Shown piece by piece: positions 24,682 through 45,203 of a stretch of 64,000 bases of DNA. Source of the stretch: Candidatus Woesebacteria bacterium (lineage in GTDB: Bacteria > Patescibacteriota > Microgenomatia > UBA8517); NCBI GenBank assembly GCA_016432525.1, contig CP066693.1, positions 30,017-94,016 of the forward strand, in the 5' to 3' direction. How positions within the stretch are numbered: position 1 is the stretch's first letter; every line of letters starts with the position of its first letter. A program made the translations under genes and the position numbers. A model generated the notes under the pieces. The model had not been told where the DNA came from and ran no database searches. It saw nothing but the letters and a program-made list of their open reading frames with translations.

Positions 24682-24701
24682 TCGTATATAATACAATTAG
24701 T

Positions 24702-27696: not shown

Positions 27697-27705
27697 AATA
27701 AACCA

Positions 27706-30384: not shown

Positions 30385-30462
30385 ATCCAAATTTGCCTTC
30401 AAAAGCTGGTCCTTTAATTCATCTAGAGATATTATATCAGATTATTTATGGAGGTCAATGCC

Positions 30463-31310: not shown

Positions 31311-31328
31311 TCTGGCGCCATTTTACAC

Positions 31329-32091: not shown

Positions 32092-32115
32092 ATCTAAAAA
32101 ATAAAGGAGTAAGCC

Positions 32116-32382
32116 GTGAACCAGCAGAGTTTCGTTCAAAAGCTAAACAAAGCATTGTTCCCTTTCACTCTCTTGGGTTGGATTACCATACCAGTCATTT
32201 TGATTTCAAATGCCATGAAGAAACCAGAAATACTATTCATATTTCTGGTTGTATATTTCGGGGCAATGGCAGTTCGCGTTGCCTATTTCTTAGGAAGAGA
32301 ACATAAAACAACCAAAAAAGAAAAAGTGAAAATCATCGATCCAAACGATGATTACATGAACCATTGGTGGGACAGAATTTAA
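32116..32382 (+). CDS. Small membrane protein (88 aa).
   Basis: Two predicted transmembrane helices. RBS-like aaaggag upstream. Confidence 0.4.
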   Translation: MNQQSFVQKLNKALFPFTLLGWITIPVILISNAMKKPEILFIFLVVYFGAMAVRVAYFLGREHKTTKKEKVKIIDPNDDYMNHWWDRI

Positions 32383-32431
32383 AAAAACAAGGGCAAACCT
32401 TAAAAACTTTTTTTGGTTTGCCCAACAATTC

Positions 32432-32914
32432 TCAACAATTCAGTCTGCCTTTATCGATAATAGGGTCAATAAGAATTGGCCTTGCGTTGTCAGAAAAAGG
32501 TTTGATATTAAATCTTCCATCATCTTTTACATTAAGAACACTCACCAAAATCCATTCGCCATTGTCTTTCTGATATTGCATAATCATTCCAACAACAAAA
32601 TCTGTTCTCCCAGCATTTCTAGCCAATTGCCTTCTAACAATCGCCCTTTCACTCAATTCAACTATGATATTGACCCATTTTCTCAAGGCATTGCTACTTA
32701 ATTTAAGTACATTGTCAGCTCCTTCAAGACGACCTATTTCTAAAGCTACTTCTTCCAGCTTCGCTCTCTTTTCTTTTTTACTCTGCTGATTTTCAAGCTC
32801 CTCAAGCATCTTTTTGACTTTTCCCAGGCTCCTCTTATTCAGCAAATACTTGTTAAATTTACTGTAATCTGCATAGTTCCTACCAAAAACAGACCTCGTC
32901 ATTTCTCTCTCCAT
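32432..32914 (-). CDS. Hypothetical protein (160 aa).
   Basis: ORF only; charged, coiled-coil-like N-terminus. Confidence 0.4.
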   Translation of the reverse strand: MEREMTRSVFGRNYADYSKFNKYLLNKRSLGKVKKMLEELENQQSKKEKRAKLEEVALEIGRLEGADNVLKLSSNALRKWVNIIVELSERAIVRRQLARNAGRTDFVVGMIMQYQKDNGEWILVSVLNVKDDGRFNIKPFSDNARPILIDPIIDKGRLNC

Positions 32915-32979
32915 TTTTGTTTAATATCAAAGAACATCCAATTCTACCATACTTTTTTCCCAAATTTTTGGGAAAAAAC

Positions 32980-33007
32980 TTGACAAACGTAAAATTAGTG
33001 ATATATT
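32980..33007 (+). promoter_or_regulatory. Sigma70-like promoter (TTGACA-16 nt-TATATT).
   Basis: cTTGACAaacgtaaaattagtgaTATATTtg. It is followed within about 45 nt by an intrinsic terminator (33050..33078). Confidence 0.4.
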
Positions 33008-33049
33008 TGTAAATTACAAGTGAGAATTTTTCTCGCACTTAAAAAAGTT

Positions 33050-33078
33050 TAAGGACCCAGCCGGGTCTTTTTTTGTTT
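33050..33078 (+). terminator. Intrinsic terminator or attenuator hairpin upstream of the 33095 ORF.
   Basis: aaaaaagtttaaGGACCCagccGGGTCtttttttgttt. It is preceded by a second hairpin AAGTGAGA…TCTCGCACTT. Confidence 0.45.
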
Positions 33079-33094
33079 AAAACCGTTAAAAATA

Positions 33095-33325
33095 TTGGAG
33101 GGTATCACCATGTGTACCCAAAAATATCAAGCACCTCCCCGGGAACATAGAGATCCCGATGAGGGCCTGACACGGGAGCAGTTGATCGAACGAAACAGGA
33201 AATTGGCCGCAAAGCGGGCTCTAGATGAGGGTGAAAGGCTAGCATATTGTTGTATGCCAACAGACCCAACAGGTCTAAACCCAAAAAATCTAGCTAAAAG
33301 AGCCAACTCGTACACAACCAACTGA
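33095..33325 (+). CDS. Hypothetical small protein (76 aa).
   Basis: ORF with an RBS (ttggaggg). Basic, and richer in G+C than its neighbours. Confidence 0.3.
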   Translation: MEGITMCTQKYQAPPREHRDPDEGLTREQLIERNRKLAAKRALDEGERLAYCCMPTDPTGLNPKNLAKRANSYTTN

Positions 33326-33381
33326 TTCCACAAAATAGGGGCAAACCTGCAATAAAATGCAACAAGGTTTGCCCCAAAGAC

Positions 33382-33717
33382 TTATAGCCTTCTCCTCTCA
33401 TCTATAATCTCTACACCTAAATCTACAAACATTTGACTTAACGATCTCCATTCTAGATACACAAAAAACCTATTTGAACCCTGATATACATTTTCTTTTT
33501 CCAGAATCTCCTCTTCTGCCAAAATCACCTTAAAAAGGCCTGTAAACTCTGGTCTTATGTATACCTCGCAGAAAAACCTCTTATCACAATCTCTCTGATC
33601 GGGAATGGCAACAGCATTACAGTCTGGCAAAAAATGCAAAGTTTTAATCCCTTCGGCTGTGTTACCAACAATATTCAAGCTCTTAAGAGGCTTATTCCGA
33701 GACATGGACTCCTCCAA
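33382..33717 (-). CDS. Hypothetical protein (111 aa).
   Basis: ORF only. Confidence 0.35.
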   Translation of the reverse strand: MEESMSRNKPLKSLNIVGNTAEGIKTLHFLPDCNAVAIPDQRDCDKRFFCEVYIRPEFTGLFKVILAEEEILEKENVYQGSNRFFVYLEWRSLSQMFVDLGVEIIDERRRL

Positions 33718-33753
33718 AAATTAGTCTGTCAAGGCCTATATTATATCAGAAGA

Positions 33754-34017
33754 TTATTTTCTTTTCCTTTTTAATCTTTCTTTTTCGAAGAAAAATAAAT
33801 AAATTAAAGGAAGTATTCCCAAAGAATTTATAATGAGAAGTCCAATAAACCAGTATTTCTGTCCATTACGAGCAGATTTCCATAAAGAAATTCCTTTTAA
33901 AATTACATCAACAATTGCAAATATTGCTATAAAAGAAAAAACTCCGTAAGATGCAGGTCCCAAGAAAAAATTCATCCAATTTCCGTTTCCATAATTTTGG
34001 TACATCATTGGCCACAT
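33754..34017 (-). CDS. Small membrane protein (87 aa).
   Basis: Two or three predicted transmembrane helices and a basic C-terminus. Confidence 0.35.
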   Translation of the reverse strand: MWPMMYQNYGNGNWMNFFLGPASYGVFSFIAIFAIVDVILKGISLWKSARNGQKYWFIGLLIINSLGILPLIYLFFFEKERLKRKRK

Positions 34018-34030
34018 AGTAATTTAAATC

Positions 34031-34621
34031 TTAGAACCCTAATTTTTCATTTACAAGTATCAAATATGCTCTATCTTTTTGAATCTCACGATTTATAATT
34101 AATAGTTTGCTCACAAAACTTCCAGTATTAATATTATGAGCTTTATTTAGTCTCACACTTTCCAAAGGAAGTACGTAATCATAAATTCGTTTTATTCCCC
34201 CATTAACATCATTAACTAATTTTTGAATTCCAACAATCCATACAACATGATTTGCTCCATATACATATGCAGGAAGTTGTGACCCAGTATTTGAAGCAAT
34301 CAAAACTTTTCCATCGTAAGTTAAGGCATGCACACTCCCAATTGCCCAATCAGGGGAACCACCCATCTTTTTCATTTCCCACTTTTGACTTTTAGGATCC
34401 ATTTGAGAAAATTTCTTTCTTACAGATTCATATTCATCGGATTCATCAATTACATCTTTTATTCCAGTCTCCGTTAAAGTCACAGAAGACATAGTAAAAA
34501 CTTCAGCTTTTTTAGGGATAATTTCTAAAACTTTCTTTTTTGCTTCCTCTTTATTCTCAACAAAAAAGGACTCAATTCCATTTGCCTTTAATGCATCAAT
34601 TACTTTTTTGTACTCTTGCAT
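34031..34621 (-). CDS. LUD-domain (YkgG/LutC-like, DUF162) protein.
   Basis: Overall pattern …VLIASNTGSQL…HVVWIVGIQKLVNDV…AYLILVNEKLGF resembles lactate-utilisation/LUD-domain proteins. Tentative. Confidence 0.45.
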   Translation of the reverse strand: MQEYKKVIDALKANGIESFFVENKEEAKKKVLEIIPKKAEVFTMSSVTLTETGIKDVIDESDEYESVRKKFSQMDPKSQKWEMKKMGGSPDWAIGSVHALTYDGKVLIASNTGSQLPAYVYGANHVVWIVGIQKLVNDVNGGIKRIYDYVLPLESVRLNKAHNINTGSFVSKLLIINREIQKDRAYLILVNEKLGF

Positions 34622-35040
34622 TATTTCTTAAGCTCTCTTTTTTTAACAAGTTTATAAACCGGAACAATTTCCCTCAGCTCTCCATCTTCTCCTTCAAATT
34701 CATTAGCACCAGTCATTCTCTGAAACTCTCTCAAATGATATGAAAGAGCGTCCTGATGTTCTTTCAATTCATCTTTCAAAATCTTGATTTTTTCAGAAAC
34801 AGCTTTCGCCTCAGGTCTATTAAGTATCTGCTTTTTAATTTGTGCTTTTAGTTGGTTTGCTTTCTTTGCAGCTTGTGAATGTTCAGCATAAGCCAGATCA
34901 TTATCAAAAATTGAGTCAAGCATTTCTTTTTGAGGCTGGATTTCTTCTTTTACTCTATCTATCTTAGCAATACGATCATTTATTGCTCCTTCAACTCTCA
35001 TTAAATCATCTGCTTTCACTGAAGGCTTATCATTATCCAT
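34621..35040 (-). CDS. Coiled-coil hypothetical protein (139 aa).
   Basis: A highly charged, heptad-like sequence. Confidence 0.4.
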   Translation of the reverse strand: MDNDKPSVKADDLMRVEGAINDRIAKIDRVKEEIQPQKEMLDSIFDNDLAYAEHSQAAKKANQLKAQIKKQILNRPEAKAVSEKIKILKDELKEHQDALSYHLREFQRMTGANEFEGEDGELREIVPVYKLVKKRELKK

Positions 35041-35258
35041 AACTTAAATACTTTAATGAAGTAGCAAAAAATTATCAAGAGGAAGATCTGCTGCGAACCG
35101 TGGACGCTGTTAGAACATACATCCTCAGTTCGACTGATTGTATTACATTCCCGAAGTTGCAGCCAGTGCCCGTCGTATGAGGGGGGGGTACGGGTCGCCG
35201 TCAAGTTACTTTATTCTGGGACTCCTTTACGCTTTCAAAACTCGAAACAGTTTGAACA

Positions 35259-36467
35259 TTACAGCTCGATAGCAAATCGGGGTGAGAAAGAGGTGTCTGT
35301 TGCTGATACTGATTGAATCTTGTCATAGATAAACATCTTGATACCTACATGACCCGAGTTACCACCGCTTGTATCCCATCCCCAGAAGTATTCCATCCCT
35401 CGTCCATCTTTTTTTCTGATCCTGTATTCAAATGCGTAAGGCTCAATAAGTCGAGCTACCCCATCATAAACCATTCTAATCAGATTCTGCGTTCTGCCCG
35501 CAGCAATGATCACATTTCTTTCTGCCGACGGGAAGTAACTGAAGACTGATGATGCACCAAAACCTTTTGTCAATCGAGCATATCCACCACCATAATTCAC
35601 TGGAGTGGTAGCAAACGAAGGAGCAGGAATGAAAGCGAACAGTCCTGTGACCAGATCTTTGAATCCAGTAACAGCACGATCGAAATCAAAAAGGCTGAAT
35701 ACAGGGGCGATTATCTCCTGCCAGAAAGGGCGATACTCCTCAACTGGAACATTGAGTAGCAGATCTTTGGCAGTATTAGGATTGGATTCATAGATAGTCT
35801 TTTTCAAAAAGGTGCTAATCACCTCAGGACGATTGACCTGATACTCATTGCTGATGAGAATCGAATACACCAAATCAAATAAATCCGTGACCTTCCTCCT
35901 TTGAAGTGCTGCATTCATTTTCGAAGCGAGTATTTCTTCAAGCTTGTGACACCGAATCACTGCCGTGCACTTATCCTCATCTGAGTATGGATGAATCAAG
36001 GAGCGTGATTGTACGGGAAGAAAAATCTTATCGAATGTTGTCACATCTAACTGGATTTTGAGTACGATTTCTTCCTCGCCATAAAAACTCTTGAAGTAAA
36101 TCCTCGCCTCATAAACCTGTGTCTGTTCATTGTCGAATCCAGGCTTTTTGTCGATTCGCGTTTTGTCGGTCTCGAATGATACACCAGATCGATCTTGAGC
36201 ATAGTTACACACTTCCTGTAGCTGCCTACTCAAATCCGATGGATCAACTGCATCAAGGACAGAGAAATCCAAATCTTTCGAAAAACGAGTATTGTGTAAG
36301 TAGGTCTTTCTGAGCGCGTTACCACCTTTGAGGATCAGTTTCTCACCTAATCCAGACTCTCCATAGATTCCCGATAATAACCATCCAAAAACATAGTCCC
36401 TCTGTAAATTGGAGGTGTTGATCTGGAACTCCTTAGCTTTCTGCTCGATCTCTGAGTTCTGTATCAT
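35259..36467 (-). CDS. AbiEii/AbiGii-family nucleotidyltransferase-like protein (type IV TA toxin-like). It has a long C-terminal extension and no obvious AbiEi partner.
   Basis: LKGGNALRKTYLHNTRFSKDLDFSV matches the AbiEii/DUF1814 N-terminal nucleotidyltransferase signature (GG[TN]AL…R[FY]SxDLDF). First gene of the higher-GC block. Confidence 0.6.
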   Translation of the reverse strand: MIQNSEIEQKAKEFQINTSNLQRDYVFGWLLSGIYGESGLGEKLILKGGNALRKTYLHNTRFSKDLDFSVLDAVDPSDLSRQLQEVCNYAQDRSGVSFETDKTRIDKKPGFDNEQTQVYEARIYFKSFYGEEEIVLKIQLDVTTFDKIFLPVQSRSLIHPYSDEDKCTAVIRCHKLEEILASKMNAALQRRKVTDLFDLVYSILISNEYQVNRPEVISTFLKKTIYESNPNTAKDLLLNVPVEEYRPFWQEIIAPVFSLFDFDRAVTGFKDLVTGLFAFIPAPSFATTPVNYGGGYARLTKGFGASSVFSYFPSAERNVIIAAGRTQNLIRMVYDGVARLIEPYAFEYRIRKKDGRGMEYFWGWDTSGGNSGHVGIKMFIYDKIQSVSATDTSFSPRFAIEL

Positions 36468-36471
36468 AATA

Positions 36472-36499
36472 AAAAAAGCTGCAATCAGCAGCTTTTGAT
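36472..36499 (-). terminator. Bidirectional intrinsic terminator between the hydrolase and AbiEii-like genes.
   Basis: aaaaaaAGCTGCaatcaGCAGCTtttga. The minus strand reads AGCTGC-tgatt-GCAGCT-TTTTTT. Confidence 0.5.
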
Positions 36500-36542
36500 C
36501 AATTGTATCACTTTTTGCTTCGATTCGAACGCAGAAGATGTT

Positions 36543-37415
36543 TTATTTGGAAGTATTTAACCAACTAATGACTCGACCTGCTACCTCGTCTTCATGTTCA
36601 AAGTAACTATGCGGAGCTCCTTCTATGACATCAGCATCAAACTGAGGACAGCTTTTTGCCTTGCTTTTGATCACATCCAACGCTTCTCGAACGGGCAAGA
36701 TTGCAGCATCGTCCTTACTACCAAAAAGGGCAAGGGTTGGTATTTTGACATTTTCAATAATTGACGATTTATCCTTGTCATAAGTATTGAATACATCAAT
36801 TGGATTCCCTCGTTCTCCGAAATCTATGTATGTTGCAGCACAGAGGTAGTACCAATTCCAGAGAAGTCTCGGAAGCAATTCCTCACCCTTGCCCTCTTTG
36901 ACCATTTTCTTTGATAAGTTCAAAACATCTTGATGGTCTTTTTCAGCTTCTGCGAGACCTACCATATCAGGTGGAGATATGAGGACTAACTTTGACACTC
37001 TTTGATCTCTGGTTTTCGCTAAGTAATAAGCAACTTTTACTGCACCAAGGCTGTGTCCCTGAAGCACTATGTTTTTGTAATTATGTGAAGCAATGAAGTC
37101 CGTCCATGCTTCAATGTCCAGAAGGCTATCCTCAAACCTCTCACGGGAATTACCCAATCGCTTGAACTCCTCTTTTTCACCAGCAATTGGAAAATCTGCA
37201 ATTATGTCGTGACCGCGAGTATTGATTGCCCAAAATGTCCAACCATTTTGCGTAAATACTTTTGCCATTGAATCCAAAAATCGATTCTCATAGAAATTAC
37301 CAGCCATTCCATGAACATGTAAGATAGCTTTTTTCGATGATTGATCTGGCTCATACAAAAGACCTTGAAGTATGAGTTTATCTTTCGTTGTGACTCGAAG
37401 AAACTGAGTTTTCAT
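36543..37415 (-). CDS. Alpha/beta-hydrolase-fold protein (esterase/lipase-like).
   Basis: Nucleophile elbow GHSLG (VLQGHSLGAVKV) and an HGMAGN oxyanion-type motif. About 290 aa. Confidence 0.6.
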   Translation of the reverse strand: MKTQFLRVTTKDKLILQGLLYEPDQSSKKAILHVHGMAGNFYENRFLDSMAKVFTQNGWTFWAINTRGHDIIADFPIAGEKEEFKRLGNSRERFEDSLLDIEAWTDFIASHNYKNIVLQGHSLGAVKVAYYLAKTRDQRVSKLVLISPPDMVGLAEAEKDHQDVLNLSKKMVKEGKGEELLPRLLWNWYYLCAATYIDFGERGNPIDVFNTYDKDKSSIIENVKIPTLALFGSKDDAAILPVREALDVIKSKAKSCPQFDADVIEGAPHSYFEHEDEVAGRVISWLNTSK

Positions 37416-38353
37416 ACAGTGTTTTGTGGCTTGCCAGCTACTGCTCCTGAAATATTTTCAACCCAAATTACAAACAGGTTACTCAATGCTTCCTTCGTGT
37501 ACCAACCAAACCCCTTGATTCCAATTGCATTATCAACTTCTGCAAGTTGTGTATTCTCAAGATCCTCAGCCTCATATGCATAGCCGTACACCTTACCAGA
37601 TTTGATTGCATTAGCCATTGCTTGCTCATCGATCAATTCTCTGTCAACTGTGTTAACAATGACTACACCATCTTTCATTTTCTCAAGTTCTTTTTTACCT
37701 ATCATGTTTTTCAACTCAGGGCTATCTTTAAGATGCAAGGTAATTGCATCAGACCCGTGGAGAACTTCATCAAAAGTCTTCATTTCAACACCATTCTGTG
37801 ACCGTGGTGAGGGGTTGTATGCAATCACTTTCATTCCAATCCCTTGACCTAACTCAGCCACTCTACTTCCGATGCTTCCCAAACCAATTATTCCCAAAGT
37901 TTTGCCTTTGAGCTCAAAACCCATTTCAAGTTGATACTTGCCCTTCTGTGTTTTTCTGTCTGTTACTAAGATGTGTTTTGCAAGACCGAGAAGTAATCCA
38001 AGTGTATGTTCTGCCACCGATTCTCTGGAATAACCAGGAATATTACTGACAGTAATATTTCGTTTTTTGCAATAATCAAGATCTACCCACCCGTATGTTG
38101 TGGTAGAAAGACAAACCGCGTGCAGCTTTGGAAGGGACTCCATCATTTTTTTCAAAACATTTCGAGCTTTTTCAAATCCACCTAATGGGTCAGGATCGAC
38201 AGCAATAATTTCTGCGCCTTTCGCTATCTCAATGAGCTTTTGCAATGGAAGTTCGGAACGATTCTCTACAAAAACTGCTTCTCCAAACTTCCTGAGCACT
38301 TCCTGTTGCTCTTGTGTGAACTCTGATGCTGGAGCAAAAATCGCTATCTTCAT
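37412..38353 (-). CDS. D-isomer-specific 2-hydroxyacid dehydrogenase (NAD-binding).
   Basis: Rossmann GxGxxG in GKTLGIIGLGSIGSRVA, plus the catalytic Arg/Glu/His context typical of the family. It overlaps the upstream gene by 4 nt. Confidence 0.75.
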   Translation of the reverse strand: MKIAIFAPASEFTQEQQEVLRKFGEAVFVENRSELPLQKLIEIAKGAEIIAVDPDPLGGFEKARNVLKKMMESLPKLHAVCLSTTTYGWVDLDYCKKRNITVSNIPGYSRESVAEHTLGLLLGLAKHILVTDRKTQKGKYQLEMGFELKGKTLGIIGLGSIGSRVAELGQGIGMKVIAYNPSPRSQNGVEMKTFDEVLHGSDAITLHLKDSPELKNMIGKKELEKMKDGVVIVNTVDRELIDEQAMANAIKSGKVYGYAYEAEDLENTQLAEVDNAIGIKGFGWYTKEALSNLFVIWVENISGAVAGKPQNTV

Positions 38354-38383
38354 ATGACAATATGATACACCTTGTCTCTTTTT

Positions 38384-38611
38384 TCAGAAAGGGAGAAGTT
38401 CAGACGAGCTCACCTTCAGGGCTTTTGCAATCTTGTAGAGGGTTCTGATGGTTGGATTTCGTTCACCTCTTTCAATCATCCCGATGTATGTCCTGTGCAT
38501 CGAAAGTTTTGCAGCCAGATCCTCTTGAGATACTCCAGCCTCCTTTCGAATCTTTTGCATCTTGTGCCCGAACTTCTCGAGCATATCTCGATGAGTGATA
38601 GGTTTACCCAT
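38384..38611 (-). CDS. XRE-family helix-turn-helix transcriptional regulator (phage cI/Cro-like repressor).
   Basis: KIRKEAGVSQEDLAAKLSMHRTYIGMIERGERNPTIRTLYKIAKAL is a canonical XRE HTH. It is divergently oriented to 38655..38987. Confidence 0.8.
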   Translation of the reverse strand: MGKPITHRDMLEKFGHKMQKIRKEAGVSQEDLAAKLSMHRTYIGMIERGERNPTIRTLYKIAKALKVSSSELLPF

Positions 38612-38654
38612 ATCCTAATCGTAGAGACTGTGAGTATCATTCTCGACATACTCC

Positions 38655-38987
38655 TTGTATGCAAATGTGCTACAATGTAGATGTTTTCCTATGAGCAATA
38701 TTCGTATTTTTGTAGTAGTAGTTGTGATCATCCTGGTGGGATATTTCACCTGGGATACAGTTGTTAAATTAGATGCAGATGTGACCCTCAACAGTGGTGG
38801 TCAAAGCAGCTATGCTCAGCAGTATTTCGGCACTGGGTACACCAAAGAGCAAATGATCAAGCTGAAGAAAGATACTTCAGATTCAATCTTGAGGCGCGGG
38901 ATCTTTCTGGATGCAGCCACACTTCTAACTGGAGCATTCGCACTCCTGGCAACTGGTAAGTTACAATCAAAGAGGAAGGAATCATGA
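38655..38987 (+). CDS. Small membrane protein (110 aa), divergent from the XRE regulator.
   Basis: N-terminal transmembrane helix (IFVVVVVIILVGYF) and a second near the C-terminus. Confidence 0.4.
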   Translation: MYANVLQCRCFPMSNIRIFVVVVVIILVGYFTWDTVVKLDADVTLNSGGQSSYAQQYFGTGYTKEQMIKLKKDTSDSILRRGIFLDAATLLTGAFALLATGKLQSKRKES

Positions 38988-39153
38988 GAAAGAAGTTGAA
39001 ATCAAAGCAGAAAGTTACAAGGCAATCAAATGCACAACGAGGGCTCAAACTCAAGGAAGGGCAATACTACGCTGTATTTGTGCCGAAGAAACACTGATCT
39101 GCTACAATACAATTAACTCCTCCACTTCGATTGATCCTCCTGTTGAAAAGATT

Positions 39154-39504
39154 ATGGTTATGATGCTCAAACCTCGACACCAGAAGTTCGTTCGGGCGTT
39201 CGTTGAGAATGGTGGCAACGCTACCAGAGCTGCGCAAGTAGCTGGTTATGGTAGTGGTGATGGGTATTCGCGTCTTGCGGGACATCGACTGATAACAAAC
39301 GATAACATCAAAAACTTGGTTGTGGCTGAAATGGAAGCTACTGGACTTGGTTTGAAATCACTTGTCAGAAGGCTCAGACAGGTCATTTTTCATCCTCAAG
39401 AGCTTGATGGTATCTCAGTTACAGCTATGAACGCTATCGGAAAATGGCAAGGATGGAATAAACCCTTGACAAAAGTGGACTTGATAGTTCATAGTTTTGA
39501 ATAA
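39154..39504 (+). CDS. Phage terminase small-subunit-like protein.
   Basis: KPRHQKFVRAFVENGGNATRAAQVAGYGSGDGYSRLAGHRLITNDNI matches the Terminase_2/TerS (P27-family) N-terminal HTH region. Confidence 0.6.
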   Translation: MVMMLKPRHQKFVRAFVENGGNATRAAQVAGYGSGDGYSRLAGHRLITNDNIKNLVVAEMEATGLGLKSLVRRLRQVIFHPQELDGISVTAMNAIGKWQGWNKPLTKVDLIVHSFE

Positions 39505-39696
39505 TAAGTAAATAACGCTTCGTTCATTTTGAATAAGGAAAAAGCGTTGATCTCGGTAATGACCTAAGGACAAGCAGATAGCTGTCAAAGGTACAAGGCA
39601 GACCGCCCCGACAATCAGAACCGAGTGAGCCGAAACCCTCAAATTGAGCAGTACCAGCCGAAAGGCTGACTGTAAGATCTGAGGATTTTTTATTTT

Positions 39697-39722
39697 GCAG
39701 CCTTTCATGGCTGCTTTTTTTA
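39697..39722 (+). terminator. Intrinsic terminator after the TerS-like gene.
   Basis: GCAGCC-tttcatg-GCTGC-TTTTTTTat. Confidence 0.5.
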
Positions 39723-39734
39723 TGGCTCACTCGT

Positions 39735-39944
39735 ATGGTCACACCAGAAGCGTTGCAATCATTCAAAGAAATATGCAAGAGAAAGGGCATCAAAATTGAT
39801 GACCAGACCGCTCTTGACTATGCTGAAAGACTCCTGGGACTCATAAGCGCTATCTATCGACCAATTTCGAAGGATAGTCCGTTTTTGAAAGGAGGTGTGT
39901 ATGCTCCAGCAAAATCCAAAACCAGAAGAAAAACTCAGGACTGA
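39735..39944 (+). CDS. Hypothetical small protein (69 aa).
   Basis: ORF only. RBS aaggagg is present near its 3' end for the next gene. Confidence 0.3.
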   Translation: MVTPEALQSFKEICKRKGIKIDDQTALDYAERLLGLISAIYRPISKDSPFLKGGVYAPAKSKTRRKTQD

Positions 39945-40087
39945 TTTGAGCTTGGCTGAGCTGAAGTTGATTGACTTCATCCGAAAGCTCAAATGGGGTT
40001 CGGCTGAGATCACTGTCCAAAACTCACAGCCTGTGATCGTTAAAGTAGCTGTGCAGACAGTCAAATTGACTTGAGGAGCAAAAGCCT

Positions 40088-41083
40088 ATGCAAAACGGAG
40101 AAAACCGAAGCATGAACGGATTCACACAAGTAGAGAACTTCCTTATCGATGAGGTTATGCCTCGTCTAAGGCGACCTACAGCCTGGAGACTGATCACTGC
40201 GATCCTAAGGGACTCTGTGGGTTGGCAGCGCGAGTGGACTGAATGGCATACACGAAAATGGTGTGCAGAAAAAGCAGGGTGTTCAGTGGAAGCAATCACT
40301 GATGTTTGGAATGAGACAGTGCCAAAGATTCTCCTCATGCAAGATGATCGATTCAAAATGCTCACAACGACTGCTGAACGACAGCATGCGGGCAACAGAA
40401 GGAGGCTTACTCGAATGAAAATCAATCCACAGATTCACAAAACATACTTGAGTATTTTTTCCTCAAGTGACTATCACCCAAAGAAAAAATCCACAAGTAC
40501 TCGAGGGAAAAGTGCCGACACTCAAAGAAAGGATGATAGAAAGGAGAATGATCCTGAAGGATCAGCTGAACTCCGTTCTGACATATCAGATAAGCAGAAA
40601 AAACTACTACAACTGGAGGCGTTACTCTCCATAGATGATATTCAGTTTCTGAAATCGCTACTCGATAACTACCCCGAGCTTGATGCTGTCAAAGTAGCCA
40701 CAGACGCTTCAGAGTGGATCAACGATGAAGGACGAGCAAATATCGGTAGTCGAAAACACCTGATAAAAAAGTTTTTCAGCACAGCCCATGAGAAGCTCTT
40801 GAAGCAAAAGCACATGTATGGGCTCAATCAGGCGATGATTTTTCTGGACGGATTCTATCGAATCTATCCTGAACGAAAACCCAAAAAGTTGAAAACTCTG
40901 CTACGACAAGCAAAATTCTACATTGAGGTAGTTGGAAAAGGATACACTAATGAGCAAATGCTTGAGACAGCAAAATGGATGACTTCTATGCTCCATTGGG
41001 CGAATCGATTTGGGTTTGAGGATGTCATCACCGTCTTACCTGCTTATTGTGTGGAAAAAAGAAAAAGGAGGTTGCAAACATGA
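40088..41083 (+). CDS. Putative replication-initiation / replisome-organiser protein (phage or plasmid type).
   Basis: N-terminal wHTH-like segment ENFLIDEVMPRLRRPTAWRLITAILRDSVGWQREW resembles phage replication protein / DnaD-like N-domains. Basic, low-complexity middle section. Tentative. Confidence 0.4.
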   Translation: MQNGENRSMNGFTQVENFLIDEVMPRLRRPTAWRLITAILRDSVGWQREWTEWHTRKWCAEKAGCSVEAITDVWNETVPKILLMQDDRFKMLTTTAERQHAGNRRRLTRMKINPQIHKTYLSIFSSSDYHPKKKSTSTRGKSADTQRKDDRKENDPEGSAELRSDISDKQKKLLQLEALLSIDDIQFLKSLLDNYPELDAVKVATDASEWINDEGRANIGSRKHLIKKFFSTAHEKLLKQKHMYGLNQAMIFLDGFYRIYPERKPKKLKTLLRQAKFYIEVVGKGYTNEQMLETAKWMTSMLHWANRFGFEDVITVLPAYCVEKRKRRLQT

Positions 41084-42900
41084 ATGCTCGTTTGAAAAGA
41101 ATGACCAAAAGAGGTAGTATGTATGATACAAGGAGTATGAAAAATTCAACTTCGATAGGAGAAATCCGATGGGCAGAATACAATCGTCGTTCATCTGACG
41201 AGGGGAAGAAAAAGCAGCTACTTTCAAATAAGTCACAGACTGATGAGCTCGCGAAAAGATATCCCGAAAACGACTTCAAGCGCAAGCATCATATTCAAGA
41301 GTCAGATAGTGCGTTCCATCCGAATAACAGACCAAGGTTCGAACAGTTAATGCAACTTATTGAAGCTGGTGAGATCAACGGCATCATCTGTTGGCATCCT
41401 GACAGGCTCTCAAGGAACTCAATTGATGCAGGACGCATCGTTCATTTGCTCAAGATTGGACAACTCAAGGAGATCAAGTTTGGCTCATATCACTTCGAAA
41501 ATACACCTGAAGGAAGGATGTTTCTGCAGTTAGCTCTGAGTCAGTCAGAATACTACTCGGACAAGTTGTCTGTAGATGTCAAACGAGGCAACACAACACA
41601 CCTGGAGAACGGACAGTGGCTCGGTGCTGCTCCACCAGGCTACCTCAACCTTATTGATCCACTTACAAAGCAAAAATATGTTGATCTCGATCCTGAGAGA
41701 TTCCCACTTCTGCAAAAAGCTGGCAAGCTTTTTCTCACTGGTCGCCATCGAGCAATGGAAGTCTTGGATATTCTCAATAATGAGTGGGGATACCGCAGTC
41801 GAAAAACCGAGAAACAGGGTGATAAACCAATGAGCAAAAGTGGTTTCTACAAGTTCCTTTCAAATCCTTTCTACTTTGGTCAAATGATAAGATCCGAGGG
41901 TGAGTTCACGGGTAGTCACAAGTCAATGTTCACCGAGTCAGAGTTCGATCGAATCCAGATTCTACTTGGTAGAAAGGGACGACTTAGGAACGATGTTCAT
42001 AAGTTTCCTTTCAAAGAGTTACTCAAGTGTGGAGAATGTGGTGGGTCAGTTACCTGTGAGGAAAAATGGCAGATAATTTGCTCGAACTGCAAAACCAAGT
42101 TCCACAAGGGCAAAAAGACCGATCAGTGCCCACAGTGCCATACTTTGATTGAGGCAATGGTCGATCCGACCATTCTCCACTATGTGTATTATCACTGCAC
42201 GAAGCGGGTGAACAGAAACTGTACTCAGGGTTGTATTTCAAAAGGTGATCTTGAAAAAACTGCAGATGTGGAACTTCAAAAGTTTGAGATCGATGAGACC
42301 TTCAGAGACTGGGCTATCGAGCATTTGAATAAGCTCAATAAGATTGAGGTCACTGATCGGGAAAAAATTAGAGGATCACTCAAAGTTGCATACGATGATT
42401 GTGTCAAAAAGATTGATAACTTACTCTCGTTGAAGATCTCAGTACAGAACACTGATGGTAGTGCGATTTCAGAAGCAGAGTACCTTAGCCAAAGACGGTC
42501 ACTACTGGAAGAAAAAGAGAGCCTTCTGGAACGACTCAATGATGTAGATCAGAGACAAAACACCTGGCTTGAACTTTCAGAGCGCACTTTCAATTTTGCT
42601 CTCTATGCTCGTCACTGGTTCGCCTACGGAGACTTACTACAAAAAACTCAGATACTTGCTGGACTTGGTTCGAACCTTCTGATACAGGACAAAAAGTTAT
42701 TGATAGATCGGCACAAACAGCTTTTTCTAATTGAGAAAGGGAAAAAGGAAGCAGAGAATCTTGGCTACTCGTTCGAACCTACAAAAAAGCCCGATTTGAC
42801 AACACAATCGGCTCCTTCTGAAGTCATTCGTTCTGCTTGGCTGCGGGACAGGGATTCGAACCCCGGTACCAAGATCCAAAGTCTTGTGTCCTACCACTAG
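41047..42900 (+). CDS. Large serine recombinase (resolvase/invertase catalytic domain, recombinase domain and zinc ribbon). The start is probably the second Met near 41080.
   Basis: Catalytic YNRRSSDEG (Y-x-R-x-S-S). Recombinase-domain segment LSRNSIDAGRIVHLL. Zinc ribbon CGECGGSVTCEE…CSNCKTKF…CPQCH. The last roughly 20 codons overlap tRNA-Gln on the opposite strand. Confidence 0.85.
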   Translation: MCGKKKKEVANMNARLKRMTKRGSMYDTRSMKNSTSIGEIRWAEYNRRSSDEGKKKQLLSNKSQTDELAKRYPENDFKRKHHIQESDSAFHPNNRPRFEQLMQLIEAGEINGIICWHPDRLSRNSIDAGRIVHLLKIGQLKEIKFGSYHFENTPEGRMFLQLALSQSEYYSDKLSVDVKRGNTTHLENGQWLGAAPPGYLNLIDPLTKQKYVDLDPERFPLLQKAGKLFLTGRHRAMEVLDILNNEWGYRSRKTEKQGDKPMSKSGFYKFLSNPFYFGQMIRSEGEFTGSHKSMFTESEFDRIQILLGRKGRLRNDVHKFPFKELLKCGECGGSVTCEEKWQIICSNCKTKFHKGKKTDQCPQCHTLIEAMVDPTILHYVYYHCTKRVNRNCTQGCISKGDLEKTADVELQKFEIDETFRDWAIEHLNKLNKIEVTDREKIRGSLKVAYDDCVKKIDNLLSLKISVQNTDGSAISEAEYLSQRRSLLEEKESLLERLNDVDQRQNTWLELSERTFNFALYARHWFAYGDLLQKTQILAGLGSNLLIQDKKLLIDRHKQLFLIEKGKKEAENLGYSFEPTKKPDLTTQSAPSEVIRSAWLRDRDSNPGTKIQSLVSYH

Positions 42901-42911
42901 ACGATCCCGCA
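42841..42911 (-). tRNA. tRNA-Gln (anticodon TTG).
   Basis: Reverse complement TGCGGGATCGTCTAGTGGTAGGACACAAGACTTTGGATCTTGGTACCGGGGTTCGAATCCCTGTCCCGCAG. U1:A72 and G73 (glutamine identity). Anticodon loop CTTTGGA. Closely related to the tRNA-Glu at 46080..46152. Confidence 0.8.
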
Positions 42912-43057
42912 ATATAAAGAAGCTCTAAAGTTCTATATTTTATCACAAAAAACTATAAATGAAGAAAAACTGTAGAATAAAAAAGTCCAAGAACTGCTGC
43001 GTAATTTCTACGTATTAGCGTTGAAAAACGCAAGCAGTTCTTGAGTGGTGAGGTGTT

Positions 43058-43333
43058 TTACCCGTTGCGCCTAGCCTGGGTCTTGAACTCAACGATTTTC
43101 GTTGACTCCTCCACCTTCGGCTTGCTCAAAACATTGCCAGCATGGCCATCAAACAGGACAGCTGTGACCAAACTCATGTCGATCACAATGTCGTGCTGAC
43201 TCCTAGCTCTTTCAGCAACTGCGGCTGCATTGGCCCCTACAGGAACTTCTACCGTGACACGGTTTGCTCCGTATACAACGGTAACGGTAACAGCAACCTT
43301 GAGGGGCGCGGGCTCAGTAATCCGACTCGTCAT
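43058..43333 (-). CDS. Ubiquitin-like beta-grasp protein (91 aa) ending …RRNG.
   Basis: Its secondary-structure pattern aligns with ubiquitin: KVAVTVTVVY / RVTVEVPVG / helix AAAVAERARSQ / LVTAVLFDGHAGNVL (compare LIFAGKQLEDG) / KIVEFKTQARRNG (compare LHLVLRLRGG). Last gene of the E1–JAB operon. Confidence 0.6.
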   Translation of the reverse strand: MTSRITEPAPLKVAVTVTVVYGANRVTVEVPVGANAAAVAERARSQHDIVIDMSLVTAVLFDGHAGNVLSKPKVEESTKIVEFKTQARRNG

Positions 43334-43412
43334 CTTACACCTCCATAAAAAAACAAAATGTGCTTCAAAGTTTGACCTAAGAATCCGATAGTATCACGCC
43401 ATTAAATTGATG

Positions 43413-44225
43413 TCAAACCAAAGCATCTGAAATGGATCTCAAAGAAGGCCCCCACAAACCATTCTGGTTTGCGTACACAGCACCTTCAAAAGAGTATGCA
43501 GTAATTTTGTCAGCCAAGTATGCGATAAACACTTGAAACATTAGTGTTGCAGTAGAAATATTAGAAGCAAGTGTTTGTTCTGCACCTTCATCTGTCGCAG
43601 CACTACAGCTCGCTTCATTCCTATTGATGGTTCCATTCAAAAGAACTCCTCTCTCTGCCTTAGCCAGTTCTGAAATCTCAGGATGCAAAGTTAAAAGACT
43701 AGGGGTTATATCTTTTCCTCCACGTCTTATGTGAATACTTACATCCCAATCCAGTTTGTTTGTTCCTCCGTTGACTACACACACATTTCTCAATGATTGT
43801 GCATATTCAGACACAACAGACCTAGGATAGTAAGCGTCAACACAAAGAAAGATCAAGGAACTTTCTTTAACAACATCCGAAACAGGAACTGTTTCTACTC
43901 CATGAATCCTATTATGATCAGTACGAGATACAACCATTTTAGGTATAGCTTCTAATCCCTGAAGCCTCCCCTCAAAACGCATTGTATATGTACCAACCAG
44001 GCTATTCGCTTTATTTCCAGGACGGGCAAAAAACTGTCTTGCACGATTTTTGTCTTCAAAACGATCGTGATCAACAACCAAAAAACGCCGTTTTATAAGC
44101 CCTCTTTCATGAAACATATACTGTGTTAGAAAAAGGGCAAGCCAACTCCCATTACCTCCAGCACCAATTAAGACAATCGAATCGGGAATCATTGATTTTC
44201 TCCTCTCCGAACATACCATAACCAA
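43413..44225 (-). CDS. Minimal E1-like activating enzyme (ThiF/MoeB family). The start is probably Met-12 near 44192.
   Basis: Rossmann nucleotide loop IVLIGAGGNGSWLALFL. Conserved Asp/Arg (LVVDHDRFEDKNRARQ). Candidate catalytic Cys in EASCSAATDEG. Confidence 0.75.
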   Translation of the reverse strand: MVMVCSERRKSMIPDSIVLIGAGGNGSWLALFLTQYMFHERGLIKRRFLVVDHDRFEDKNRARQFFARPGNKANSLVGTYTMRFEGRLQGLEAIPKMVVSRTDHNRIHGVETVPVSDVVKESSLIFLCVDAYYPRSVVSEYAQSLRNVCVVNGGTNKLDWDVSIHIRRGGKDITPSLLTLHPEISELAKAERGVLLNGTINRNEASCSAATDEGAEQTLASNISTATLMFQVFIAYLADKITAYSFEGAVYANQNGLWGPSLRSISDALV

Positions 44226-44881
44226 TCTTCTGGAAAGTAAGAAATCTGATCAGGCATATCAATCAAAAAATCCGGGCTAAGAATAAATCTAAGCCCACAT
44301 ATTGTGACTGACACGCTCATATTAACTGGACCATCAAATACCCTGCCGAGTGTAATGTATATTCCATCAACGCCAGTTTCATTAAAATCATCCTCAAGAC
44401 TATGGCCCGCAAGCATTATTCCATGAGAGTGAATAATCCCAACTGCCAAAAATCCTTCTGGTATCGGCTCAATCTCCCTATGCTGGACCGAAGCGAAACT
44501 TACCTTCTGATGTAGTGGCCTAAAATCCCACTTGTCCTCCTCCGGAGAGTAAAGAATTTGAAGCATTGCCTCACTTTGAAATTTTTCATACACCTTTCTA
44601 AAAAACCCTTTAGCCATCAATATAAGACCATACGGGATCTTCGAGAAAGAAGTGTAGATTTTCTGTTCAAAATTAAGAAGGTCCTCCGGTTGACAAGATT
44701 CAATTATTTTTCTGTTTGTTGGAGCTACAATTTCAATCCAAGTTTCATCTCCTTGTTTTATGCAACCCCAAAGAAAATTGCCGTTCTTGGCAACAACATA
44801 AAGTAAACGTTTGTTGGTTGGAAATTCAAAATTTCGGTCATAAAACACAATCCTCTCACCCATGTAAGTCATCTTAACCAA
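44189..44881 (-). CDS. JAB/MPN (JAMM) metallopeptidase (deubiquitinase-like).
   Basis: Full JAMM motif HSHGIMLAGHSLEDD (HxHx7Sx2D) with upstream Glu. About 230 aa. Its ends overlap both neighbours, indicating an operon. Confidence 0.75.
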   Translation of the reverse strand: MVKMTYMGERIVFYDRNFEFPTNKRLLYVVAKNGNFLWGCIKQGDETWIEIVAPTNRKIIESCQPEDLLNFEQKIYTSFSKIPYGLILMAKGFFRKVYEKFQSEAMLQILYSPEEDKWDFRPLHQKVSFASVQHREIEPIPEGFLAVGIIHSHGIMLAGHSLEDDFNETGVDGIYITLGRVFDGPVNMSVSVTICGLRFILSPDFLIDMPDQISYFPEDWLWYVRRGENQ

Positions 44882-45201
44882 TCCTCCTCAGGAAAATAAT
44901 CCTGACCTCGATGTCTCATCTGATTTAAATATGGCTGAATTAAAGAATCCGCCTCTTTTCTAGTACGATATCCTAAAACAAACTCTTTATCACTAGATGA
45001 TACTTTCTCTATCATCGCATAAGCGATTGCAAGATATATCTCATCCTCTGAAAAACCAGGGAATCTCATAAGAATCGCTTTGACCATTCGTTTAGTTATC
45101 CATTCAAATAACCAATATTCCCCGATTACATCTATGATATTTCGAAGTTTATTCTTAACTGTTAAGTCAGTGTATAACCACTCTTTCAGTTTAATCGACA
45201 T
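44869..45201 (-). CDS. Hypothetical protein (110 aa) within the Ubl/E1/JAB operon.
   Basis: ORF overlapping both neighbours. No Cys. I recognise no motif. Confidence 0.4.
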   Translation of the reverse strand: MSIKLKEWLYTDLTVKNKLRNIIDVIGEYWLFEWITKRMVKAILMRFPGFSEDEIYLAIAYAMIEKVSSSDKEFVLGYRTRKEADSLIQPYLNQMRHRGQDYFPEEDWLR

Positions 45202-45203
45202 TG

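Follow-up and report, generated by a model that had tools for sequence, protein, structure and literature searches.

A compact element of CPR bacteria, very probably inserted by a large serine recombinase at the 3' end of tRNA-Gln

Results

Limits and junctions of the element

The region spanning 35090–42843 of the window (the whole 64,000-nucleotide stretch of Candidatus Woesebacteria chromosome analysed) is very probably a complete integrative mobile element, inserted by a large serine recombinase (LSR) at the 3' end of a tRNA-Gln gene. It has a foreign composition and gene content, exact ends, a counterpart inserted at the same position in a second host, and relatives that are associated with tRNA genes throughout the family. 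A mobile element integrated at a tRNA had been proposed in the preliminary description, and this was borne out by a sister element (L097) from another CPR genome, which occupies the corresponding position in a separate tRNA-Gln gene and has unrelated flanks. The features are listed in Table 1.

Table 1. Features of the element and its target in the window.
Feature	Position	Strand	Evidence or remark
Putative attL core GCTG	35090..35093	.	L097 similarity start, unrelated left flanks, change point 35079, host promoter-like site outside
Conserved non-coding left end	35090..35258	.	putative P' arm of attP and AbiEii 3' region
AbiEii/MenT-type nucleotidyltransferase with C-terminal WYL-like domain, 402 aa, cargo	35259..36467	-	Pfam AbiEii E = 2e-24
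Terminator-like hairpin between hydrolase and AbiEii	36474..36496	-	consensus scan only
α/β hydrolase, 290 aa, cargo	36543..37415	-	Pfam Abhydrolase_1 E = 7e-14
D-2-hydroxyacid dehydrogenase, 313 aa, cargo	37412..38353	-	Pfam 2-Hacid_dh_C E = 4e-40
XRE/Cro-C1-type repressor, 75 aa, leftward arm gene 1	38384..38611	-	HTH_3 E = 8e-20
Small membrane protein, 98 aa, rightward arm gene 1	38691..38987	+	ORF and gene call
Terminase-small-subunit-like (TerS-like) HTH protein, 116 aa	39154..39504	+	Terminase_2 E = 2.5e-6; PHROG 51 E = 9e-11
p69, small two-helix hallmark protein of the family	39735..39944	+	homologues in 57 family loci
p57, small protein	39901..40074	+	identity 100% in L097, 65% in L099
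Putative replication initiator (Rep), 331 aa, N-terminal lambda-O-like winged helix	40088..41083	+	weak matches
LSR, 606 aa	41080..42900	+	Resolvase 57.8 bits; PHROG 95 'integrase' E = 1.5e-52
Host tRNA-Gln(UUG), putative attB target	42838..42911	-	ARAGORN and Rfam 62.7 bits
Putative attR core GCTG	42840..42843	.	identity of window and L097 ends here; antisense: last acceptor bases, discriminator G, first C of CCA

Judged by sequence comparison, the element appears to be complete, with a length of 7.75 kb and a 4-nt core GCTG at each end, and the ends were placed at 35090 and 42843 because the similarity to L097 starts and stops there. In blastn, L097 was 73–87% identical to the window over the aligned blocks 35089–36521, 37412–38684, 38984–39220, 39465–40112, 41634–42338, and 42503–42915. 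When the junctions were aligned, the left flanks were unrelated up to the T preceding GCTGCGAAC and the similarity began from 35089/35090, and at the right junction both sequences were the same up to CTGCTTGGCTG, beyond which the host-specific tRNA-Gln bodies differ. The L097 copy has the identical 4-nt core at its two ends. A core of 4–6 nt is too short for significance alone, and its assignment relies on the comparison of these two genomes. A 6-nt match, GCTGCG (35090–35095), is common to the left end in the window and attR by chance.

The left end is ~65% conserved among the window, L097, and a further sister element (L099), and contains GTTAGAAC at a spacing of 15 nt from the core, as well as a G-run and an imperfect inverted repeat (~35095–35135). 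The same P' motif with the same spacing was found at a contiguous attP-like junction in another locus (L073). The left end gave no match in Rfam and its RNA fold was not unusual (z = 0.56). The putative attP and attB would be CATTCGTTCTGCTTGGCTGCGAACCGTGGACGCTGTTAGAAC and AAGAGGAAGATCTGCTGCGGGACAGGGATTCGAACC, respectively. Of the att direct repeats suspected earlier between the left end and the tRNA-Gln region, only the shared core GCTG was found and no long repeat, as expected of a serine recombinase with its 2-bp crossover. The LSR ORF overlaps the tRNA-Gln gene in antisense by 63 nt, which agrees with the overlap noticed before, and the junction comparison assigned the tRNA body to the host and the CCA and 3' trailer to the element. 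Neither an empty site nor an excised circle was found: every contig of this organism carries the element, and two metagenome pattern scans were empty; the homologues of its flanks are too distant to give an empty-site comparison. The strain-variable presence proposed as a check was likewise not seen in two Logan samples.

Genes of the two arms

The AbiEii, α/β hydrolase, 2-hydroxyacid dehydrogenase, and XRE genes named in the preliminary description are all present, as supported by profile matches. The XRE repressor is 98.7% and 81% identical to its counterparts in L097 and L059, respectively, and has homologues in 32 family loci. The dehydrogenase gene lies directly downstream of it, and L097 has an 83% identical copy in the same place. 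The hydrolase position is a variable cargo slot: its place is taken in L097 by a gene for a MOSC protein and in L099 by one for an NTP_transf_3 protein. The AbiEii protein was also detected by PADLOC (E = 4e-50), whose full-length AbiEii model matched at E = 4e-42. In its AlphaFold model (pLDDT 80.5), Foldseek matched the N-terminal part to JHP933 and Rv1045, and residues ~314–402 to the WYL domains of DriD and BrxR. It thus shares the AbiEii/DUF1814 nucleotidyltransferase fold with the AbiE/MenT type IV toxin–antitoxin systems (Pfam, PADLOC, and Foldseek to Rv1045 MenT3 and JHP933), but the element is without an AbiEi antitoxin gene and has the WYL-like domain fused to the AbiEii C-terminus instead. 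An AbiEi neighbour was found neither here nor in L097, L098, and L099.

In the rightward arm, the TerS-like, replication, and LSR genes reported earlier were recovered, the first two by weak matches that make their assignments tentative. The 98-aa membrane protein is 40% identical to an L099 protein and matched no family. The TerS-like protein, with homologues of 141–142 aa in L097 and L099, scored 28.6 bits with Terminase_2 against a cut-off of 26.1, over N-terminal 55 of the 141 profile positions only. The matches of Rep are all weak (Phage_rep_O 19.3 bits, E = 1.7e-3, below cut-off; PHROG 277 E = 8e-5; TIGR01610 E = 2e-4). The p69 homologues are always encoded ahead of the LSR and on the same strand as it; p69 is predicted to form a helical hairpin, has no match in Pfam, PHROGs, and PDB, and may be a candidate recombination directionality factor. 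The LSR is not a pseudogene, as its ORF is intact and 35 of 35 family-invariant residues are kept. It is 63% identical to the L097 LSR, and more than 90% in the DNA-binding C-terminal half. The family profile matches the SPβ SprA, TP901-1, and ϕC31 integrases, and a single-sequence search of solved LSRs returned only TnpX (E = 7e-4).

This gene set brings up a possible but less probable reading, in which the element is a phage satellite of the PICI/PICMI type, where a helper CPR phage would lift the XRE repression, the LSR and p69 would excise the element, Rep would amplify it and the TerS-like protein would redirect helper packaging to the 7.75-kb genome. Like PICI, PICMI, and P4-like satellites, the element is compact and has four hallmark functions (integrase, XRE repressor, replication initiator, and TerS-like protein) without virion genes, and the three sister elements have all retained the gene for the TerS-like protein. 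However, the TerS similarity is limited to the N-terminal HTH noted above, and conservation of the gene does not extend to the wider LSR family, whose members have modules of the Prim-Pol, rolling-circle Rep, or wHTH Rep kind instead. No helper phage is known, and the proposed phage-database searches with the recombinase and the TerS-like protein gave the PHROG 95 and PHROG 51 matches but no relative of the element in IMG/VR. To our knowledge, the described phage satellites use tyrosine integrases.

Relatives of the element in CPR bacteria

The LSR has 2260 homologues at E ≤ 1e-10, the named ones coming from Woese-, Levy-, and Daviesbacteria and WWE3. In the 80 genome loci taken for the family survey, 78 LSRs were full-length, nearly all of them from CPR, and 50 of these terminate within a tRNA gene on the opposite strand (Gln, Ser, Met, Asn, Glu, Trp, Phe). 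The LSR clades track tRNA identity in a neighbour-joining tree, and the C-terminal consensus WLRxxDSNP is the translated antisense CCA, acceptor, and T-arm. In four of the loci scored as having no tRNA, the LSR ends at a group I intron, which means that the tRNA is an intron-bearing one. A T-arm is present in some of the others, and some show an attP-like junction and the tRNA only 1.5–9.5 kb beyond it, an arrangement that indicates tandem arrays. In four loci (L054, L059, L072, and L088), elements of 6.1–10.7 kb are delimited by direct repeats of 13–18 nt that correspond to the tRNA 3' end, and L007 has the same two-arm layout with MTase/Mrr/OLD as defence cargo.

Composition and extent of the island

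The G+C content is 0.344 over 30226–35085 versus 0.426 over 35090–42837 (1-kb background windows: mean 0.366, sd 0.036), with the maximum-likelihood change point at 35079 (likelihood ratio 40), near which it steps up from 0.33 to 0.43, and GC3 is 0.21–0.27 in host genes versus 0.34–0.50 in element genes. The composition is thus not uniform in the sliding G+C check, and the abrupt rise described near 35041 is real. The 220-nt stretch from there (35041–35258) is non-coding and includes the G-run as reported, but is GC-rich only from 35086 to 35258 (0.49); its first 45 nt are AT-rich (0.24) host promoter DNA with a sigma-70-like site at 35078–35050. The host flanks of L097 have an element-like G+C of 0.43–0.46, and this match suggests a recent import into the Woesebacteria host of 0.34–0.36 G+C.

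Past the tRNA-Gln, the raised G+C persists to ~44.5 kb (Ubl 0.53, E1 0.40, JAB 0.39), so composition alone gives no stop at 42911. A larger island from 35090 to ~45956, with the tRNA-Gln and the Ubl/E1/JAB/p110/p250 block in the same incoming DNA, or a second island on the tRNA 5' side, is nevertheless unlikely. Such an extension would agree with the G+C of 0.39–0.53 and the GC3 of 0.28–0.55 (against 0.21–0.27 in host genes) in this part, and with sub-threshold matches of JAB and E1 to the plasmid/ICE-associated PRTRC cassette; the Ubl/E1/JAB matches are weak, and PADLOC detected only E1 ('E1-E2' model, E = 0.0076, 13 bits). But the L097 similarity ends at the tRNA 5' end (42915) with unrelated right flanks, the tRNA bodies differ between hosts, the segment 42912–42985 is AT-rich (0.19) and host tRNA promoter-like, no integrase is found in 43–46 kb, and the LSR adjoins the tRNA in the family loci. 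The Ubl/E1/JAB operon, previously counted with the island as a putative defence system, is separated from the element by the tRNA and is not part of it.

Integrity and mobility

The element had also been described as degraded, and the decay of a larger prophage or ICE, left immobile beside the tRNA, would account for the lack of structural and conjugation genes and of a long att repeat. This is very improbable: all ORFs and the invariant LSR residues are intact, L097 and L099 share the compact layout and the left end, and L097 has the same core at both ends. The repeat-bounded elements, like the family as a whole, are all of 6–11 kb without virion genes, which argues against a degraded prophage. 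That the region is not mobile, being a local variation in base composition or a conserved part of the host genome whose recombinase has been domesticated, fits the absence of presence/absence variation in the two Logan samples but is hardly credible against the same element in an unrelated context at the same tRNA position of a second genome, cargo that differs between copies, tandem arrays and tRNA-end repeats in the family, and strong G+C and GC3 shifts.

Discussion

For an integrative element at tRNA-Gln, the following course of events is proposed. The LSR would have acted on an attP that coincides with the 3' end of the LSR gene and on an attB that lies right at the 3' terminus of the host tRNA-Gln(UUG), with the exchange taking place within the GCTG core at the discriminator position. 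After insertion, the tRNA body is still that of the host, the CCA and trailer come from the element, and the LSR ORF runs antisense through the tRNA. Two divergent arms extend from the region of the XRE repressor. The one to the left (XRE, 2-hydroxyacid dehydrogenase, α/β hydrolase, and AbiEii-WYL) carries metabolic cargo and a toxin/defence gene and would be expressed while integrated, and the one to the right (membrane protein, TerS-like HTH protein, p69, p57, O-like Rep, and LSR) would function in excision, replication, and re-integration. We infer the exact crossover dinucleotide, the current activity, and the XRE regulation. The gene content includes no transfer machinery and no virion genes, and movement between cells may occur by phage-satellite packaging via the TerS-like protein or by uptake as a small replicon.

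The known LSR elements (ϕC31, Bxb1, TP901-1, A118, SPβ SprA, SCCmec Ccr, and TnpX) share with this element the resolvase catalytic domain with YxRxSS, the recombinase domain, the Cys4 zinc ribbon, an integrase gene at the element edge, and minimal attP/attB core identity (2-bp crossover). They insert in protein-coding genes or intergenic sites, whereas this element and at least 50 relatives are at tRNA 3' ends. The CPR elements further differ in being 6–11-kb non-viral units, in an attP that overlaps the 3' end of an integrase ORF reading into the tRNA, and in the very low sequence similarity of their LSRs to the solved ones. The tyrosine-integrase islands (P4-like, Islander-type) resemble them in targeting the tRNA 3' part and making the gene whole again with sequence of the element, in tandem arrays at the same tRNA, in the integrase beside the tRNA, and in defence and metabolic cargo, but their recombinase family is unrelated to LSRs. 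The identity blocks of those islands are longer than the 4 nt seen here or the 13–18 nt in the relatives.

A tRNA target was recorded for 44.5% of Y-Int elements versus 14 of 297 S-Int elements, and of tRNA use by S-Int it was said that it "has not been reported previously" (Mageeney et al, 2020; PMC7192596). The ϕRSM-type elements cited there are similar in that a serine recombinase puts a small element at a tRNA 3' end. The ϕRSM enzyme is small and resolvase-like without the large C-terminal domain and belongs to a Ralstonia inovirus, which as an element is probably not homologous to the present one. The ϕRSM target is tRNA-Ser. No description of the present element family was found in the literature. 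On the sequence evidence, these elements form a widespread CPR family of 6–11 kb, whose clades differ in the tRNA targeted by their LSR, and tRNA genes would be a target not previously known for the LSR class.

The recombinase and the ends of the element

The mobile element at tRNA-Gln of Candidatus Woesebacteria carries a 606-aa large serine recombinase (LSR), which the preliminary description had named and whose family assignment was clear in both Pfam and PHROGs. The host was recognised as a candidate phyla (CPR) bacterium from the 139-aa flanking protein, which has an identical counterpart (locus tag HY044_00300) on a 916-kb contig of a Candidatus Woesebacteria MAG. Its resolvase domain scored 57.8 bits against PF00239 (cut-off 23.3), and PHROG 95 aligned with residues 7–379 (E = 1.5e-52). 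As a single sequence it fell below the Pfam cut-offs for PF07508 (18.4 against 21.1) and PF13408 (21.0 against 25.3), and domains of both types were above threshold in its relatives. The motif YNRRSSDEG is present, with Y34, R36 and S38 invariant among 36 relatives; eight cysteines are also invariant and the LSR is intact, every family-invariant residue being kept. Positions 12–300 of the family profile align to SPβ SprA, and the profile also matches TP901-1 and ϕC31. Because of these matches, the enzyme is, judged by its sequence, a bona fide LSR predicted to catalyse attP x attB recombination.

The left and right junctions (attL and attR) were defined with a sister copy. An AbiEii 89% identical to that of the window was found on contig Ga0104751_1003642, labelled Candidatus Parcubacteria (L097), in an element that also encodes XRE, 2-hydroxyacid dehydrogenase, MOSC, terminase-small-subunit-like (TerS-like) and lambda-O-like replication (Rep) proteins. 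By blastn, L097 aligned with the window in blocks of 73–87% identity, with the first base exactly at 35089 and the last at 42915. The left flanks of the two copies are unrelated as far as a T followed, across the junction, by GCTGCGAAC(C/T)GTGGACGCTGTTAGAACATAC. At the right junction both read ...CATTCGTTCTGCTTGGCTG and then enter two clearly different tRNA-Gln(UUG) genes, with the body sequence CGGGACAGGGATTCGAACCCC... in the window versus GGAGACTTGGATTCGAACCAAG... in L097. This junction comparison therefore places the element at 35090–42843 (7,754 bp). In both hosts attL and attR have just four bases in common, GCTG, which is antisense to the end of the acceptor stem, the discriminator G and the leading C of CCA; strand exchange therefore falls at the very 3' terminus of the tRNA gene. 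The body of the tRNA is host DNA, and CCA and the trailer come from the element; that six bases, GCTGCG, are shared in the window is in part coincidence. The defined ends, together with an identical insertion point in tRNA-Gln genes that differ between the two genomes and have unrelated flanks, identify an integrative element inserted independently in two hosts. The LSR gene end overlaps tRNA-Gln as first described (see the table).

The L097 LSR is an intact ORF of 593 aa with 63% overall identity to that of the window, being ~30% identical in the catalytic domain and >90% identical in the DNA-binding C-terminal half; the latter fits a putative common target specificity. Other proteins of the two copies are closer, at 98.7% for XRE, 100% for the small protein p57 and 89% for the small protein p69. 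Because the flanks of L097 have a G+C of 0.43–0.46, similar to that of the element, a recent import into the low-GC Woesebacteria host is suggested. In L099, a third copy that is partial, NTP_transf_3 takes the place of the hydrolase, and the non-coding left end is kept together with its G-run.

Long att repeats, which had been expected to join the left edge to the tRNA region, were not found as direct repeats, and a second copy of the tRNA 3' 17-mer is absent across the whole window. An alternative left end in the gap that separates XRE from the dehydrogenase was rejected as no tRNA fragment was found there, and dyad symmetry was dropped as a guide to the exact crossover dinucleotide, the GTTCT/AGAAC centre lying off the shared core. 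Neither an empty site nor an excised circle was detected in Logan contigs or JGI metagenomes, where minimal coverage of the organism makes the search weakly informative. Exact-protein look-ups of flanking genes led to no contigs other than those identical with the window, the homologues examined for the 139-aa protein of the flank showed ≤56% identity and no synteny, and JGI metagenome scans for the attB pattern and host-type tRNA-Gln gave zero matches. Contig breaks at 35347 and 35881 fall within AbiEii, away from the element boundary.

Composition agrees with the left end. In 1-kb windows the G+C is 0.40–0.44 over 35 to 44 kb and 0.33–0.37 on either side; the 300-nt profile steps between 34950 and 35250. 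The abrupt rise reported near 35041 was placed at 35079 by likelihood change-point analysis (0.325 to 0.428, likelihood ratio 40), and third-codon G+C also separates host genes (0.21–0.27) from those between 35259 and 42837 (0.34–0.50). As a G+C island spanning 35041–42911, the feature holds at its left step and not at its right edge, for raised G+C extends beyond tRNA-Gln to ~44.5 kb. The non-coding stretch with a G-run was recovered at 35041–35258, its first 45 nt being AT-rich with a promoter-like site for the flanking 139-aa gene; as a structured RNA it gave 0 Rfam matches and a folding z-score of 0.56. A second GC-rich block (12990–15027, G+C 0.47–0.51), which is not rRNA, contains ORFs of 384, 109 and 167 aa without Pfam match and adjoins a sortase gene (15404–16132).

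Coordinates of features in the window and in loci with a homologous recombinase
Feature	Locus	Position	Strand	Remarks
tRNA-Gln(UUG)	Window	42838–42911	minus	ARAGORN and Rfam
LSR ORF	Window	41080–42900		63-nt overlap with tRNA-Gln
Ubl/E1/JAB block	Window	43058–45956		91-aa Ubl-like, ThiF/E1, JAB, 110-aa and 250-aa proteins; between tRNA-Gln and tRNA-Lys/Glu
rRNA region	Window	19740–30225
16S rRNA	Window	28829–30225	minus
tRNA-Ile/tRNA-Ala/23S	Window	20963–24234
LAGLIDADG endonuclease	Window	28039–28575		16S–23S spacer
TraG/TraD-like coupling protein	Window	24702–26975		16S–23S spacer
Second LAGLIDADG gene	Window	20332–20799		between 23S and 5S
Group I intron	L082	11724–12013		LSR 3' end
Group I intron	L083	11735–11930		LSR 3' end
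Group I intron	L085	11735–11935		LSR 3' end
Group I intron	L087	10941–11149		LSR 3' end
Tandem-array span	L073	11660–13253
Tandem-array span	L049	11600–19966
Tandem-array span	L035	10600–20213
Tandem-array span	L054	966–11678

A recombinase family at tRNA genes

The specificity for tRNA genes is family-wide. At E <= 1e-10 there are 2260 homologues of the LSR, with named sources among Woese-, Levy- and Daviesbacteria, WWE3 and other candidate phyla (CPR) groups, and in all of the first six loci inspected its 3' end overlaps an antisense tRNA (Gln-UUG, Gln-CUG or Ser-UGA). GTDB species genomes were scanned with the family alignment, which yielded 80 loci; the family counts take in the window and three further homologue loci. 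The LSR end lies within an antisense tRNA gene called by ARAGORN for 50 of the 78 full-length LSRs, the targets being Gln, five Ser isoacceptors, Met, Asn, Glu, Trp and Phe, and seven of the 78 sit at contig ends. In four remaining loci a group I intron stands exactly at the LSR end, and because of this position their target tRNA genes are predicted to be intron-bearing and beyond ARAGORN calling. Several other loci have a T-arm at the LSR end. In L073, L049 and L035/36 the LSR runs without a break into an attP-like junction, with the tRNA 1.5–9.5 kb further, a layout that indicates putative tandem arrays at one tRNA; L054 has two attL copies.

The family consensus C-terminus WLRxxDSNP is the translation of antisense CCA, acceptor and T-arm, and tRNA identity was followed by the LSR clades in an NJ tree. 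Direct repeats of the tRNA 3' end, 13–18 nt long and starting exactly at the tRNA terminus, bound elements of 6.1–10.7 kb in L054 (three copies, tandem array), L059, L072 and L088. Three tRNA-Ser loci have the element flanked on its two sides by tRNA-Ser genes that differ from each other; the 26–31-nt "repeats" of L037, L040 and L060 are such neighbouring genes and were rejected as att repeats. The P' motif GTTAGAAC, 15 nt off the core, recurs in the window, in L097 and at the junction of L073, which is contiguous.

The contigs L003, L004 and L005 carry one and the same LSR element, its LSR being 67% identical to that of the window, and agree in their right flank; their left sides diverge completely within the 3' end of a MerR/HTH_17 gene (L004 4076–4107), because of which variable cargo arms among these strains are suggested. 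Just past the 5' end of tRNA-Gln, L004 (8170–8222) and L005 (4233–4390) contain extra direct and inverted partial copies of the tRNA 5' part (ACCATCAGACGACCGGGCA, GGTCGGATAATGG).

Gene content and lifestyle

The AbiEii, α/β hydrolase, 2-hydroxyacid dehydrogenase and XRE genes named in the preliminary description were all clear in profile searches. The TerS-like gene is present with a Terminase_2 match limited to its N-terminal HTH, and the replication gene is likewise present with a weak lambda-O-like match. Of the hallmark set of a satellite, the integrase and XRE are clear and the Rep and TerS-like assignments weak. The dehydrogenase starts 30 nt past XRE, and a terminator-like hairpin precedes AbiEii. 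Virion structural, large-terminase and lysis genes are absent from the element in PHROGs and Pfam, the sole "head and packaging" match being the TerS-like HTH, and at 7.75 kb the element does not qualify as a prophage.

Across the family, a 65-aa two-helix protein (p69 in the window) is encoded in 57 loci, in every case ahead of the LSR and on its strand; 32 loci have XRE and 28 have DUF5659. The p69 protein had no match in Pfam, PHROGs, NCBIfam or PDB, and its single-sequence structure model gave a helical hairpin only. Replication modules are interchangeable (Prim-Pol, inovirus-type rolling-circle Rep and wHTH Reps), and leftward cargo includes methyltransferase, Mrr and OLD nuclease. No virion genes were found in the family loci, and IMG/VR scans with the LSR and its alignment returned no true relative. 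Because the TerS-like gene is kept in all three sister elements (window, L097 and L099), a phage-satellite lifestyle is plausible, if rather unlikely.

The AbiEii nucleotidyltransferase scored 87.1 bits against PF08843 and E = 4e-50 in PADLOC. In its AlphaFold model (pLDDT 80.5), Foldseek matched residues 1–277 to JHP933 and Rv1045/MenT3 and residues ~314–402 to the WYL domains of DriD and BrxR, so that the 402-aa protein is, on the model, a fusion with a C-terminal WYL-like domain. More than 1000 homologues of equal length (400-aa form) occur in many phyla, and no descriptive paper on the fusion stood out in the literature search. The gene upstream, across a 75-nt gap, is the α/β hydrolase. 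An adjacent AbiEi antitoxin/regulator was absent from all four contexts examined (window, L097, L098 and L099) and the two-gene definition of AbiE is therefore not satisfied; a stand-alone nucleotidyltransferase that bears a sensor domain is the better description. L098, in a 950-kb contig, carries a T4SS conjugative element (1–17254; TrbC, VirB4-like protein, coupling protein and relaxase) that holds two LSR genes and a 70%-identical AbiEii-WYL.

The Ubl/E1/JAB operon, which had been read as adding to a defence-carrying island, is located beyond the tRNA, at its 5' side, and does not belong to the element. Its E1 matched ThiF (E = 1.6e-8), and its JAB matched Prok-JAB below cut-off (E = 2.6e-3); JAB and E1 also had matches below cut-off to the plasmid/ICE-associated PRTRC cassette, with PRTRC_A (E = 7.8e-6) and PRTRC_ThiF (E = 1e-3). 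The 91-, 110- and 250-aa proteins had no family match, a PDB sequence search with E1, JAB and the 110-aa protein gave no match, and PADLOC returned essentially nothing, with E1 alone at E = 0.0076. Because its GC3 is slightly over the host level, an older or separate acquisition is suggested, and the block may be a remnant of another mobile element. Elsewhere in the window the rRNA region is unusual: 16S stands 4.6 kb from tRNA-Ile/tRNA-Ala/23S, with genes for a LAGLIDADG endonuclease and for a TraG/TraD-like coupling protein in the spacer, and a second LAGLIDADG gene lies further on.

Proposed mechanism and significance

We propose that attP, overlapping the 3' end of the LSR gene (reconstructed junction ...GAAGTCATTCGTTCTGCTTGGCTGCGAACCGTGGACGCTGTTAGAACATAC...), would recombine with an attB made of the tRNA acceptor/T-arm and its 3' flank (reconstructed junction ...TTATCAAGAGGAAGATCTGCTGCGGGACAGGGATTCGAACCCC...), with a 2-nt crossover inside GCTG. 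XRE may silence the rightward arm while being co-transcribed with the leftward cargo. Small directionality factors of ~60 aa are known in TP901-1, A118 and SPβ, and p69 is a candidate for this role; excision would be followed by Rep-driven replication.

In its choice of target the element follows the logic of tRNA islands formed by tyrosine integrases. Serine integrases, the main working tools of genome engineering, have been regarded as avoiding tRNA genes. Among 297 S-Int elements, Mageeney et al (2020) counted 14 with tRNA use and wrote that it [quoted passage not shown] (PMC7192596); the large LSR survey of Durrant et al makes no mention of tRNA. No description of CPR LSR-tRNA elements was found in full-text literature searches. 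We tentatively suggest, with slightly less than even confidence, that this is the first recognised tRNA-dedicated LSR clade, comprising CPR-wide integrative replicons or satellites of 6–11 kb that read the acceptor/T-arm as an attB half-site with exchange at the discriminator base, cross CPR classes (Woesebacteria and a Parcubacteria-labelled MAG, with elements at 80–87% nucleotide identity), rely on p69, an orphan protein of 65 aa, as a novel directionality factor and ferry stand-alone defence genes (AbiEii-WYL).

Taken alone, the window contains a genomic island with well-defined limits; for the family as a whole, the finding is a notable, testable extension of serine-integrase biology. A whole clade targets tRNA genes, with subclades matched to at least seven tRNA species and junctions mapped to the base, and small elements are seen to move defence and metabolic genes between CPR lineages, in which mobile elements are poorly known. 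The natural attP/attB/integrase sets on offer for CPR genetics would, if the proposal is true, be ready-made, host-matched integration tools for bacteria that are almost genetically intractable.
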